Source of the DNA: Psychrobacter sp.
GTDB lineage: Bacteria > Pseudomonadota > Gammaproteobacteria > Pseudomonadales > Moraxellaceae
Direction of reading: 5' to 3'
Assembly (NCBI RefSeq): GCF_049295055.1
Contig: NZ_JBAQQF010000053.1
Span: 61,871-125,870 of the forward strand
Length of the DNA stretch: 64,000 bases
Below the pieces are notes generated by a model, which ran no database searches, was not told the origin of the DNA, and worked only from the letters and a program-made list of their open reading frames with translations. Shown piece after piece: positions 56,074-62,472 of this stretch. Position 1 is the stretch's first letter; every line of letters begins with the position of its first letter. The position numbers were made by a program, and so were the translations under genes.

Positions 56074-56769
56074 TTATACTTCTACAAACGCCGCTTTATC
56101 CTTAAACATACATTCGTCATAGACAGGACAAGCGCCACATTTCGGCGTGCGTGCTTGACAAGTATAGCGCCCATGCAAAATCAGATAATGATGCGCATCA
56201 ACGATAAAGTCGTCTGGAATGCGTTCAACCAGTTTTTTTTCAACGATTAAGACATTCTTACCTGTCGCAAGCCCCGTCCGATTGCCAACGCGAAATATAT
56301 GGGTATCGACTGCCATCGTAGGTTGCCCAAAGGCGGTATTTAACACCACATTTGCCGTCTTACGCCCAACGCCAGCCAGTGATTCCAAGTCTTTACGGTT
56401 ATCAGGAACGGTACTATTAAATTTCTCTATCAAATCACGGCAGGTTTTGATCACATTTTTAGCTTTGGCATTAAATAAGCCGATATTTTTAATATACGCT
56501 TTAAGTCCTTCCTCACCTAATGCCAAAATGGACTCAGGCGTGTTTGCTAACGGATATAACTTGCGAGTGGCAATATTGACACTCACATCAGTTGCCTGTG
56601 CCGATAAAATCACCGCGATAAGTAGTTCAAAATTGCTGCCATAGTTCAGCTCAGTGACTGGCTCATCAATCGTTGCTGCCAATTTTTCAAAAAACGGACG
56701 TACGTCACGATTGGGCATGCGCCTCGATGGTGGTGTATCAGCAGTTTTATGTTTGACGGTTTTACTCAT
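56074..56769 (-). CDS. nth: endonuclease III
   Basis: A 231-aa ORF with HhH-GPD (LESLAGVGRKTANVVL) and the FeS cluster loop CQARTPKCGACPVYDEC. Confidence 0.95.
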   Translation of the reverse strand: MSKTVKHKTADTPPSRRMPNRDVRPFFEKLAATIDEPVTELNYGSNFELLIAVILSAQATDVSVNIATRKLYPLANTPESILALGEEGLKAYIKNIGLFNAKAKNVIKTCRDLIEKFNSTVPDNRKDLESLAGVGRKTANVVLNTAFGQPTMAVDTHIFRVGNRTGLATGKNVLIVEKKLVERIPDDFIVDAHHYLILHGRYTCQARTPKCGACPVYDECMFKDKAAFVEV

Positions 56770-58934: not shown

Positions 58935-60617
58935 TTAAGCAGCAAGTAACTGGCTCAAGCTCTGCTGTCCGACATCAAGTGCCTGCTTACTGACTGGGCG
59001 ATTATTTTCAAAACCATCTAGATGATGATCTACTGCCATCATCACATCAGCGATATAAGCTAATGTGCCATCATCAATACGGGTCCCACCATTGATACGT
59101 TGCTGCAAGTAACTCGCCAACTGGCTAAGCATACTAGCAGGCGTTGGCAGTTGCAAAAATCGTACGGCACCAGACACTTGACGTAGCATTTCAGGAATGT
59201 TTTGAATATTAAGTACATCGCGTTCAGGCTCAGCTAGATAGTCATTGATGCCTTGCTCGGCACTAGCAATAGCCGTACGGCTTTCTTGTATCAACGTATC
59301 ATAGGCGGTGTTGAGCTGGTGCAATGAAATATGTGGATTATTCAAAGGCAGATAGATTGCACCTGGCGTATGCATTTCTGCCATCGCGATGGTGGCATTT
59401 TCAGCATGCATCAATGCCAATAGTAAATGGTCAAAATCTTCAGGAGAAGGCGCACGCCACGTAGTCACCGCTTCTGCTGCTTTCGTAAGGCTATTGGCAG
59501 CATTTGATAGACCCAGCAGATGTAATGATGAGCTCAATGTGGTCAGATCTTCAATGATTTGAGAAGTCTGCATATCAACAGGATTGATGGAGTCGCCACG
59601 CGCATAGCTATCGACGTTTTCTTTAATGGTATTGATTTGAGTCTGAATGATCGTATTCAAAGTGTCGGTGAGCGCGCGGTTAGGGCCGAACAAGAAGCGC
59701 TCCATTTGTTTGCGTTGCGGATCTTCTAGCTGATTTGCCGCATATTGCTCACGTAATATTTTTGCTTCTTCAACATCACGCTGGCAGGCAAAACTGACCA
59801 AATCTGCGAAACGCGTATCCATCACAGGTAAGTAGCTTTGGAACTGCTGTTCTAAGTAAATGAGTGTGTGTTTTTGGCTCAAGTTAAGAGGTAAAATGGT
59901 TGCGATATCAGTGACCGCTACGGCTGCTGCTTGCCAAAACAGACTGCTGCTATTTACCGCTATCAAAGCGCAAGCCGCTGACATTGCATCCAGTTTTTGC
60001 TGATCGTCTTGGCTAATGTTACCGTCTTGATTAATCAAAGCTACGCCAAGACCAGTACGATAAGCATAGGTCAATAAGTCACTATCAAGATTTAGCTCAT
60101 TAAGCGCTTGAAAGTTTTGTTCAGGATTGGCAATGATAACGCTACTATTACCGAAAGTAGCAAAATACTCTGCATCAATAGGCGCAACTTGACTATGAGC
60201 ATTGAGCTTATTAATAATAGGTAATAATAAAGTCGGCTCTACTGATTCTGTCAGCAGCACGAACTCAATATAACGATCAAGCGTCATAATGGCTTCTGAC
60301 AAATCCATAATCAATTCGACATTGCTATTGTCGCCACTATCATAAAGTTGTTGTAAGCCCTGTACAACCGCTATGTTAAGCGTTTCTGCACCGACCGAAG
60401 ATATGAGCTGAAAAATACAAGTCAGCTGTTTTAATACAATAATAGAATCTAACAATAAAGGTGCTTGGCTATTGTCGTCAGTAAATTCGCCCAAATGAAT
60501 CTCAGTGTCTTTAAGTATGACATTGATCTCATCGTGCAATAAATGGAGCGATGGTAGATTAAAGTTAGTCACACTCAGCGTTGGCGCAGTTAATTTCATT
60601 TGGTTGGATTTATTCAT
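58935..60617 (-). CDS. hypothetical protein, possibly a FimL-like scaffold (related to the ChpA N-terminus)
   Basis: About 560 aa from ATG at 60617. The call rests on size, helical character, and position between nudC and dnaQ/rnhA. That position resembles my recollection of the Pseudomonas fimL neighbourhood. The sequence itself has no motif I can name. Confidence 0.35.
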   Translation of the reverse strand: MNKSNQMKLTAPTLSVTNFNLPSLHLLHDEINVILKDTEIHLGEFTDDNSQAPLLLDSIIVLKQLTCIFQLISSVGAETLNIAVVQGLQQLYDSGDNSNVELIMDLSEAIMTLDRYIEFVLLTESVEPTLLLPIINKLNAHSQVAPIDAEYFATFGNSSVIIANPEQNFQALNELNLDSDLLTYAYRTGLGVALINQDGNISQDDQQKLDAMSAACALIAVNSSSLFWQAAAVAVTDIATILPLNLSQKHTLIYLEQQFQSYLPVMDTRFADLVSFACQRDVEEAKILREQYAANQLEDPQRKQMERFLFGPNRALTDTLNTIIQTQINTIKENVDSYARGDSINPVDMQTSQIIEDLTTLSSSLHLLGLSNAANSLTKAAEAVTTWRAPSPEDFDHLLLALMHAENATIAMAEMHTPGAIYLPLNNPHISLHQLNTAYDTLIQESRTAIASAEQGINDYLAEPERDVLNIQNIPEMLRQVSGAVRFLQLPTPASMLSQLASYLQQRINGGTRIDDGTLAYIADVMMAVDHHLDGFENNRPVSKQALDVGQQSLSQLLAA

Positions 60618-60766
60618 AGTTGTTTTTCCATAAGATACTGACGAAAATAGCAATTATTTAAATAATAGACTAAAAAAGGTATGTGGCTAAGGATTTAACG
60701 CTTATCATTATAATAATCAAGACTATATCTCCTAATGGCCATTTTAAGAAGCTATTTTAATGTCTG

Positions 60767-61912
60767 TTACATTTTGGCTCTTAGCTCAGGATAGTCTTCT
60801 GCGAGCGCAGCATACCAAATTTGATTGGCGTTCTCATTAATACTCGACTCAAGCAATAAGTTGGCTAAACTTGCAAAGCTAGCATGGGCAGTCTGTCCAC
60901 CATCTGCTTGGGTATCTTCCTCAATCGCTAACGTGACCTGTCCACCGGTCATCGCCAGATAAACTTCCGCTAAAATCTCTGAATCTAGTAATGCCCCGTG
61001 AAAAGTACGGTCTTGCTTGCCAACATCTAAGCGGCGCACGAGAGCATCTAGGGTGTTTTTTTGCCCAGGATATTGCTGTTTGGCCATTACCAGCGAGTCG
61101 GTCACTTTTACCCGCTCGGCAAAGTCATGCATACCAACTTTGGCAAACTCCATATTTAGGAAGTTCATATCAAACGTGGCGTTATGAGCGATGACCTCTG
61201 CACCGTCCATAAAATCATAAAGCGATTGAGCAACTTGATTAAAGGTTGGTTTATCGCTCAAAAACGCTTCAGAGATACCGTGAATCCGAATAACTTCTTC
61301 ATCCATGCCGCGCTGTGGATTGATATAGACGTGTAGCTTTTCGCCGGTAAACTTACGCCCGATCATCTCCACAATACCAACCTCGACAATGCGATCGCCC
61401 TTTAACGGATCAAGACCTGTGGTCTCAGTATCCATGATAAGTTGGCGGTCCGATTCATGACGATTGATAGGCTGAGGTAGCAGCGCTTTAAAATGTGGAT
61501 TGGCACGGCTCGTGTCGCCATCGAATTTTGGTATTTCAGTATCCATACCAGCTTCTATATCAGTATTTATATTGGGCATATTAGCGTTTATCGTGGTATC
61601 AGTCATAATAGTCTGGGCTTCCAGTATATCTTTGGTAGTCATTGGTTTACTAATATTATTCTGATAGTAATTTACTTCTATTATGTTCTTTTTATTCACC
61701 ATATCATCGACATGATTTCTATCAGCAGCAGAGTTTTTTGCTACATAGCTGTCTAATATGTCGCTTTCTAGAGTCTGGCTTTCTAGCATAGGATCATCTG
61801 ATGGCTCTTCATCAAGCTCATCATTCATCATATCAAAACCCAATGGATCGAACTTTAGCCAATCATCGCTTGTAGAGGGGTTTTTATCAGAGGCTATTTG
61901 CTGAACAGACAC
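60767..61912 (-). CDS. dnaQ: DNA polymerase III epsilon subunit (3'-5' exonuclease) with a ~148-aa acidic N-terminal extension
   Basis: Exo motifs IMDTETTGLDP, HNATFDMNFL and HGALLDSEILAEVY. The ORF opens with a GTG that overlaps the rnhA stop (TAGTG). The true N-terminus is uncertain; see the findings. Confidence 0.85.
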   Translation of the reverse strand: MSVQQIASDKNPSTSDDWLKFDPLGFDMMNDELDEEPSDDPMLESQTLESDILDSYVAKNSAADRNHVDDMVNKKNIIEVNYYQNNISKPMTTKDILEAQTIMTDTTINANMPNINTDIEAGMDTEIPKFDGDTSRANPHFKALLPQPINRHESDRQLIMDTETTGLDPLKGDRIVEVGIVEMIGRKFTGEKLHVYINPQRGMDEEVIRIHGISEAFLSDKPTFNQVAQSLYDFMDGAEVIAHNATFDMNFLNMEFAKVGMHDFAERVKVTDSLVMAKQQYPGQKNTLDALVRRLDVGKQDRTFHGALLDSEILAEVYLAMTGGQVTLAIEEDTQADGGQTAHASFASLANLLLESSINENANQIWYAALAEDYPELRAKM

Positions 61913-62472
61913 TATGCTTGCTCTTTTTTTTTAGCAGTATCTTGTGTTTCCACTATCGATAAACCTTCACTACTAGACGTTACGCCCAAATTTGCTAGCT
62001 CATCTGCCTTTTCATTACCAGCATGTCCAGCATGACCTTTGACCCAATGCCAATCAACATCGCGTGGTTGGCAAAGCTCGTCTAACTGTTGCCAAAGGTC
62101 TTGATTGGCGACTGGTTTTTTACTGGCTGTTTTCCAGCCTCGTTTTTTCCAACCTTCAATCCATTCGGTGATGCCTTTTTTAACATAGCTTGAGTCTGTC
62201 CAAATCTCAAGATTCTGCTCATGTGGACTGTATTTTAATGCTTGTATTGCGCCCATCAGCTCCATACGATTATTGGTCGTCTGACTATCGCCACCATACA
62301 AATCCTGCGTACGCCCGTCACTAAATATAAGATGCGCGCCCCAACCGCCAGCGCCAGGATTACCTTTACATGCACCGTCGGTATAGGCAACCGTCGTATC
62401 TGATTTGGCGGCCAACGGATTCACGGCGTTATTGGTATTGAATTGCTGCGCTGAGATAGGATTGTCTGACAT
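61912..62472 (-). CDS. rnhA: ribonuclease HI
   Basis: A 186-aa ORF with [29 protein letters not shown], and [18 protein letters not shown]. Confidence 0.93.

Follow-up and report, generated by a model that had tools for sequence, protein, structure and literature searches.

A conserved A9 run at the rnhA-dnaQ junction of Psychrobacter as a candidate slippage site

The rnhA-dnaQ junction and its split in the window

We analyzed the junction between rnhA, coding for RNase HI, and dnaQ, coding for epsilon, the proofreading subunit of DNA polymerase III, in a 64-kb stretch of Psychrobacter sp. DNA, hereafter called the window. On the minus strand of this stretch the two genes form distinct open reading frames (ORFs) that overlap by a single base, and a run of nine adenines (A9) lies shortly before the overlap. 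The 3' end of rnhA reads GAT ACT GCT AAA AAA AAA GAG CAA GCA TAG, and the last base of its stop codon is the first base of the dnaQ GTG. The elements of the locus are as follows.

61912-62472, minus strand: rnhA ORF, 186 amino acids (aa), RNase HI (ORF reading)
about 61984-62394, minus strand: RNase_H domain (PF00075), aa 27-163 of the rnhA ORF (Pfam)
61923-61933, minus strand: T-A9-G motif (sequence), with the T at 61933, the A9 run coding for three lysines (KKK) at 61924-61932, and the G at 61923
61912-61914, minus strand: TAG stop codon of rnhA (sequence)
61910-61914, minus strand: TAGTG stop/start overlap, with the GTG at 61910-61912 (sequence)
60767-61912, minus strand: dnaQ ORF, 381 codons from the GTG (ORF reading)
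61887-61889, minus strand: TGA closing the +1 frame (frame translation, sequence)
about 60959-61438, minus strand: epsilon exonuclease domain RNase_T (PF00929), aa 159-318 of the dnaQ ORF (Pfam)

The order of the domains, an N-terminal RNase_H domain followed by a C-terminal DEDDh (RNase_T) exonuclease, is that of the RNase HI-epsilon fusion, which PMC3290774 describes as restricted to Moraxellaceae. The window shares with that fusion its two domains, their order, and the synteny, with a FimL_C-domain gene coming next, but it encodes two overlapping ORFs in different frames instead of a single ORF. Within the dnaQ ORF, a linker of 158 aa precedes the exonuclease domain.

Relative to rnhA, dnaQ is read in the -1 frame. 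A TAA at 61931-61933 closes this frame directly 5' of the A9 run, and from the run onward the frame is open (AAA AAA AGA GCA AGC ATA GTG). Conceptual translation indicated that one added A within the run, or a -1 shift on it, yields an RNaseH-linker-epsilon fusion of 568 aa; the in-phase slippery heptamer at this position is A_AAA_AAA. A transcript with A8 is predicted to encode RNase HI with an 11-residue tail. An analysis of the DNA letters that preceded this work (the original prediction) had described the rnhA 3' end, the TAGTG overlap, the frame relation, the closing TAA, and the position of the run, and all of these statements were confirmed on the minus strand, as was, by frame translation, its claim that an extra A or a -1 shift at the run would fuse the two ORFs.

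A9 is the sole homopolymer of at least 9 nucleotides (nt) in the window; the only other long one is a T8 at 56233-56240 on the plus strand. The frequency of such runs was not above chance, with one A9/T9 observed in 64 kb versus 2.98 +/- 2.6 in dinucleotide shuffles, and the case for the run thus rests on its position and conservation. A search by consensus for internal promoters and terminators near the junction gave matches at the level of shuffled sequences (9 versus 7.1 and 3 versus 1.6), none of them at the junction itself.

The 120 best homologues of the conceptual fusion were all single proteins of 519 to 604 aa that contain both the RNase H and the exonuclease domains, and all those with a species name came from Psychrobacter. 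The expectation that RNase HI and DnaQ are fused in relatives was thus borne out by these homologues, and also by the literature (PMC3290774). We also fetched the locus from 80 species-representative genomes of Psychrobacter, which were the best 80 of 211 matches to a fused query, and all 80 contain single fused ORFs. Because both sets consist of single ORFs, the fused gene is, by comparison, the ancestral state. Three of the 80 genes carry frameshifts elsewhere, with the A9 at the junction intact (L043, JCM 18903; L081, the WY6 complete genome; and L084, JCM 18901, in which two frameshifts coincide with A8 runs of the RNase H domain). These frameshifts are probably draft-quality homopolymer errors.

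The closest fused relatives, in Psychrobacter sp. DAB_AL62B (L001) and on a metagenome contig (L002), show 87-89% protein identity. Their junction reads GCT AAA AAA AAA GAG CAA ATA GTG TCT GAT and contains the same A9 in frame. When the window was aligned with both, it revealed an insertion of 20 nt directly 3' of the run, which breaks the frame 6 to 9 nt downstream of it. The insertion consists of an 18-nt in-frame tandem duplication of GAGCAAATAGTGTCTGAT plus 2 nt in the first copy.

61904-61923, minus strand: copy 1 of the duplication, GAGCAA-GC-ATAGTGTCTG-TT, 20 nt, in which the extra dinucleotide at 61916-61917 breaks the frame (alignment, sequence)
61886-61903, minus strand: copy 2 of the duplication, CAGCAAATAGCCTCTGAT, 18 nt, equivalent to the single GAGCAAATAGTGTCTGAT of the relatives (alignment, sequence)

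The TAG that ends rnhA in the window is the ancestral +1-frame stop, shifted into frame by the insertion, and the GTG is an ancestral valine codon that has become a possible reinitiation codon. The split had previously been attributed, as one option, to an A10 miscounted as A9. This was refuted: in the fused relatives an A9 is in frame, and what breaks the frame of the window is the insertion of 20 nt, so the split does not stem from a homopolymer miscount; the same split occurs in six independent assemblies.

The exact pair, a 186-aa RnhA and a 381-aa ORF with a 1-base overlap, recurs on at least six independent metagenome contigs, each obtained from a different sample. Over 2-5 kb, these six match the window at 99.2-100% identity, and their junctions are identical, all with A9. 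In addition, two clusters at 90% identity comprise more than 30 distinct RnhA sequences of 185-186 aa, whose C-terminal ends, each directly followed by the stop, include AKKKEQA, EQI, EQT, and EQV. Judged from the proteins only, the EQI ending suggests that the original lesion converted ATAG to ATATAG. A 381-aa DnaQ (MSDQQIASNK...) that is 94% identical to that of the window retains the duplication. Because of the six identical junctions, the diversity of the RnhA variants, and the persistence of the duplication in this DnaQ, the comparison indicates that the window split is real, is not recent, and has diversified.

Three further split lineages were examined at the DNA level; L094-96 and L180, like L003-L008, come from sewage and marine samples. 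In L094-96, represented by 10 contigs, the junction reads GAG GTA AAA AAA AAG CCA TGA, and the dnaQ ATG overlaps the stop codon as ATGA. The junctions of L098 and L180 (GCA_038235315.1) read GAC GTA AAA AAA AAG CCC... and CTA AAA AAA AAG AGT CAA TAA TG, respectively. The lesion is different in each lineage, that of L180 being a tandem duplication of roughly 14 nt upstream of the A9. In all three, the A9 is intact, the dnaQ frame is in the canonical NNT AAA AAA AAA G phase, the in-phase heptamer is A_AAA_AAG (L094, L098, and L180), and an added A or a -1 shift fuses the two ORFs. In the epsilon domain, the window is 94% identical to the fused L001 and L180 is 85% identical to the fused L074. 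For L094 and L098, identity to all sequences compared is about 66-75%, and between the two it is 68%. Each of the three further lineages falls among fused relatives in this comparison. As none of the four split lineages is closest to another by this measure, the four split events appear to be independent. A fifth case, L097 (A10), was disregarded because of its 1.7x coverage.

At the protein level, further DnaQ-only ORFs begin at the fourth codon past the run in other species, e.g., P. fozii (373 aa), and further RnhA ORFs end with KKKSQ, KKKSK, or KKKLK. A homologue search with P0144 yielded mostly Chloroflexi tandem-RNase H proteins, together with many RNase H-only ORFs that end just past KKK. 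A metagenome scan with an RNase H-only alignment returned mostly generic RNase HI among the matches listed. Of its four best loci that we examined, three are fused genes (L100-L102) and one is an unrelated adjacent pair (L103). Alleles of the A8, A10, and A11 types of otherwise fused genes are present in public assemblies, with RNase H-only ends KKKSK, KKKTA, KKKRPHSD, and KKKKTA. P0319, with the A8-type end KKKSK, shares a 90% cluster with the fused P0420, and the behavior of P0406, P0411, and P0311 is that of A8, A10, and A11 alleles of a P. piscatorii-type gene.

Conservation of the A9 run and its surroundings

The run is exactly A9 in 78 of the 80 species genomes, where it codes for KKK at the point where the RNase H domain ends, within an otherwise hypervariable linker; the two exceptions are AAAAACAAA and A6. 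Relatives with unlinked frames and no homopolymer at the junction had been named in the original prediction among the observations that would speak against it, and the run was found to be kept in nearly all of these genomes. The three lysine columns at the junction contain AAG in 0 of 76 genes. They are the only such columns among 23 conserved lysine columns, the other 20 having AAG in 1 to 62 genes each, and the mean pairwise divergence at 4-fold sites in these genes is 0.49. Elsewhere in these genes, A9 encodes none of the KKK triplets (0/35). Conservation of the run thus appears to exceed the needs of codon usage and protein sequence, and the comparison points to A9 as a conserved ancestral element that predates the split, which the original prediction had overlooked.

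Flanking bases and off-frame stops were counted in the 76 intact genes that carry A9. A T precedes the run in every one of them, against about 23 expected, and the codon to which this T belongs varies in the amino acid it specifies (GCT, ACT, TCT, CCT, AAT, GTT, or GGT). A G follows the run in 74 genes. Constraint on the flanks thus acts on the nucleotides and not on the encoded amino acids.

The stops in the two other frames show a similar pattern. A +1-frame stop is located exactly two codons past A9 in 72/76 genes and is built by nine codon-pair solutions (ATA-G, ATA-A, TTA-A, CTG-A, CTA-A, GTG-A, TTG-A, ATG-A, and GTA-G), an A always following the codons that end in TG. Where isoleucine is encoded at this site, the codon is ATA in 59 of 61 cases, compared with 13% of the isoleucine codons of the window. 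By synonymous resampling, a +1-frame stop within two codons of the run was expected in 28.9 genes and was observed in 73 of the 76; for a -1-frame stop within 6 codons, at a distance of 5-6, the expected number was 39 and the observed number was again 73. Three sequence features of a slippage site of the Thermus dnaX type are thus present, namely, A9 in the coding strand, conservation of the run, and nearby stops in both nonzero frames.

The cassette extends to fused genes that are only about 50% identical, as in L091 (ATT-A9-CGC TTA A) and L092 (CAT-A9-GTA A). L089, a fused gene of similar identity with a G+C content of 50%, has ACT-A10-TAG. Several other fused representatives have no junction run of lysines (P0123-P0128, P0135, and P0138), and the A9 cassette is thus apparently not universal in Moraxellaceae. 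In L099 (positions 1-1777), rnhA and dnaQ are unfused, in the same frame and with the same synteny, and they are separated by a stop-containing spacer of about 170 nt with no A-run, an arrangement that represents either a pre-fusion state or a secondary separation.

Candidate slippage at the run and alternative explanations

In Thermus thermophilus, dnaX contains an A9 run with stops in both nonzero frames, and the tau and gamma products arise by transcriptional slippage, with about half of the product being truncated (Larsen et al. 2000, as summarized in PMC1088944 and PMC5009743). By analogy, we propose that the A9 of rnhA-dnaQ is a slippage site of ancestral origin, kept by selection at the boundary between RNase HI and the linker, from which both free RNase HI and the fusion would be made. 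We hold this reading with moderate confidence, favoring it over its denial; the anatomy of the sequence, its conservation, and the repeated occurrence of split forms are observed, and slippage itself, its rate, and the relevance of both products are deduced from comparisons between genes.

Realignment of RNA polymerase on a 9-bp rA:dT hybrid, as in T. thermophilus dnaX, would be the most likely route; ribosomes shifting by -1 may play a part as well, on A_AAA_AAA or, in the remaining split lineages, on A_AAA_AAG. From the ordinary genes of Psychrobacter, transcripts with A9 would yield the full RNase HI-linker-epsilon fusion, and those with A8, A10, and similar lengths would meet the near stops in both other frames and yield free RNase HI. 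In the window lineage, the 18-nt duplication plus 2 nt moved the +1-frame TAG into frame, so that the arrangement would be inverted: faithful transcripts would give the 186-aa RNase HI, and transcripts with A10, or ribosomes shifted by -1, would give the 568-aa fusion. Epsilon with its linker might also be produced by termination and reinitiation at the overlapping GTG. The original prediction had envisaged either that both separate and fused forms are made or that the split is an artefact. Comparative evidence makes the production of both forms plausible, and the notion of an artefact was dismissed by the 20-nt insertion and the six assemblies.

Signals that stimulate ribosomal frameshifting were sought around the run. 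RNAalifold predicted no conserved pairs (0) on 36 diverse sequences, and the fold of the window around A9 had a z score of -0.84, giving no support for a stimulatory stem-loop or pseudoknot. By inspection, no Shine-Dalgarno-like stimulator is conserved, the 24 nt upstream being variable and devoid of a GGAGG-like element. Because there is neither a conserved structure nor such an element, and because all nine A's and the T are conserved and not just the heptamer, polymerase slippage seems to fit better than classical -1 ribosomal frameshifting.

Both likenesses and differences to known systems are apparent. As in Thermus dnaX, a sense-strand A9 lies in a replisome gene with near stops in both frames, the faithful product would be the full-length one and the slipped product the truncated one, and no RNA structure would be needed. 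Unlike in Thermus, the truncated product would be a complete, separate enzyme, RNase HI, and the arrangement is inverted in some lineages including that of the window. PMC5009743 indicates that insertions predominate in transcriptional slippage and describes "reversed" dnaX genes, whose long product (tau) depends on the shift, as the longer product of the window lineage would. The in-phase heptamer of lysine codons is reminiscent of the -1 frameshift site of Escherichia coli dnaX (A_AAA_AAG), but the Psychrobacter genes have no conserved downstream hairpin or upstream Shine-Dalgarno-like stimulator, and the nine A's plus T are conserved, which is more than the heptamer. Finally, in Shigella flexneri mxiE (T9) and in the poly(A) rescue of Buchnera and Blochmannia genes, one nontemplated base in a 9-nt run joins two overlapping ORFs, and in the latter a frame-breaking lesion is compensated for at the RNA level, as proposed here for the window (cited in PMC1088944 and PMC5009743). 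The window differs from these cases in that its lesion lies 6-9 nt downstream of the run and in that the run pre-exists in unbroken orthologues.

Several points weigh against slippage as the explanation. The set of 80 genomes was obtained with a fused query, so split species are under-sampled, and since the species are related, the counts are not independent and allow no valid P value. That the RNA polymerase of Psychrobacter would slip on A9 is an assumption based on E. coli and Thermus. At 5-6 codons, the distance of the -1-frame stop is the same as the median of the background in this frame. No role in slippage is established for the conserved T; it also forms the -1-frame TAA, and one might speculate that it extends an all-weak 10-bp hybrid. 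Some RNase H-only proteins may simply reflect A8, A10, or A11 alleles, i.e., real length variants or sequencing errors. Lastly, each of the four split lineages has a start codon that overlaps or lies close to the stop of RNase HI (TAGTG, ATGA, TAATG, and an ATG 12 nt on), so that coupling alone could supply epsilon.

The last point leads to an explanation that we judge unlikely, though it is the chief alternative: a plain gene split, in which epsilon with its linker would be made only by reinitiation at TAGTG, the A9 would be a leftover, and the slipped fusion would be noise. The stop/start overlaps or near-overlaps of the four split lineages are in keeping with it, as is the fact that 37/79 fused genes have ATG or GTG as the codon that overlaps their +1-frame stop. 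In addition, a linker motif (DWLxFDPLG), which in the window reads STSDDWLKFDPLGFD, precedes the first in-frame ATG of the dnaQ ORF and is intact in both the window and the 94%-identical DnaQ; ribosomes must therefore come into the dnaQ frame no later than the GTG, and entry at the GTG would translate the motif. However, of the features of translational coupling, the window has the stop/start overlap but not the ribosome-binding site in the upstream gene. There is no Shine-Dalgarno sequence before the dnaQ GTG, where the duplex with the anti-Shine-Dalgarno sequence has an energy of -2.1 kcal/mol, at the 40th percentile of background windows; the corresponding energy at the rnhA start is only -3.6. 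Coupling also leaves unexplained the invariant A9, T, and G in lineages that have long been split and have diversified, and the upkeep of the run in fused genes, where one synonymous AAG would abolish a harmful slippery site. Moreover, all four lesions belong to the class rescued by one added A, with a chance of about 1 in 16. The run might alternatively be kept for a reason other than frameshifting, such as poly-lysine AAA codons that slow ribosomes for folding, or a DNA A-tract signal, with the off-frame stops merely limiting the cost of accidental slips. KKK is indeed conserved in the protein, precisely where the RNase H domain ends, and the "ambush" model also predicts off-frame stops. We consider this improbable, as it still needs slippage frequent enough to select for stops and accounts neither for the T, which is invariant, nor for lesions beside the run that break the frame and have repeatedly survived.

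Changes at the DNA level could also be invoked. The run might be a contingency tract in which replication slippage heritably switches between fused and split or truncated states, i.e., phase variation that does not involve RNA. Near-identical public sequences that differ only by run length (P0319/P0420; P0406, P0411, and P0311) would fit such switching, but these alleles come mostly from short or low-coverage contigs and are perhaps sequencing errors, the exact A9 in 78/80 species genomes and in all six contigs of the window lineage argues for stability, and the window split arose from the 20-nt insertion and not from run length. We give little credence to this explanation. Still less credible is an artefact of assembly or of sequencing, or a pseudogene in decay, as the source of the split. 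Homopolymers are error-prone, and three draft genomes of the set are frameshifted elsewhere in the gene; nevertheless, the frame break is an insertion and not a run-length difference, and the junction is identical in assemblies from different samples. A pseudogene is at odds with the intact ORFs and complete domains, with a lineage that has diversified without further disruption, and with the requirement of dnaQ for normal growth. Finally, we see only a slim chance that the tract operates at two levels, combining RNA slippage with a reversible A8/A9/A10/A11 switch of the amount of epsilon and its tethering to RNase HI. If so, it would create a phase-variable mutator or replication-fidelity state, of which the repeated inversions of the cassette would be the evolutionary footprints.

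The class of mechanism proposed for the A9 run, slippage, is already known, and rnhA-dnaQ would be a new gene using it. The literature that could be searched, including a replication review, a large recoding review, and the GeneTack survey, held no link of slippage or frameshifting to rnhA-dnaQ or Psychrobacter. Baranov et al. pointed out that cases giving a truncated product are hard to find computationally. If slippage occurs, rnhA-dnaQ would be, after dnaX, the second gene associated with the replisome in which slippage on A9 determines the ratio of the products, and a rationale for the Moraxellaceae fusion would be a fixed ratio of RNase HI tethered to the DNA polymerase III core to free RNase HI. 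The lineages whose zero-frame product has changed over would then serve as a natural experiment that shows how mutations breaking the frame are buffered by recoding sites. Annotation pipelines report such loci as a single "DNA polymerase III subunit epsilon" of about 540 aa or as an rnhA gene and a dnaQ gene, and the alternative product, whether truncated or fused, goes unflagged.

Linker motifs and the neighboring gene

The linker, acidic and hypervariable, contains two conserved blocks and is followed, past the exonuclease domain, by a conserved neighbor.

61832-61867, minus strand: conserved linker motif DDWLKFDPLGFD (comparison with relatives)
about 61450-61520, minus strand: second linker block, FDGDTSRANP[HY]F.[PA]LLP.PI.R, dnaQ aa about 130-155, just upstream of the exonuclease domain
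58935-60653, minus strand: FimL_C-domain gene, about 560 aa

The first block, D-W-L-x-x-D-P-L-G-[FL]-D, is found 10-25 residues past the A-run. It is also present in L089, L094, L098, L180, P0126, and P0375, and it is kept in fused proteins that are only about 45-50% identical, e.g., SDWLIDDPLGLD and LDWLTSDPLGFD. It might be a protein-docking peptide. The second block is present in Psychrobacter and in the more distant fused proteins P0123-P0125. Just past the run, the linker is encoded by repeats of the form (ACT AAC / GAT ACT AAT)n, coding for TNTNTN or DTNTD, whose lengths differ widely by species (L053, about 2050-2130; L042-L072). This amounts to microsatellite-like variation inside an essential gene.

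The FimL_C-domain gene follows rnhA-dnaQ in every lineage examined (L001, L003, L089, L091, L094, L099, and L180). As it is also the neighbor in distant lineages and in L099, whose genes are unfused, this synteny predates the fusion as well as the variants of it.

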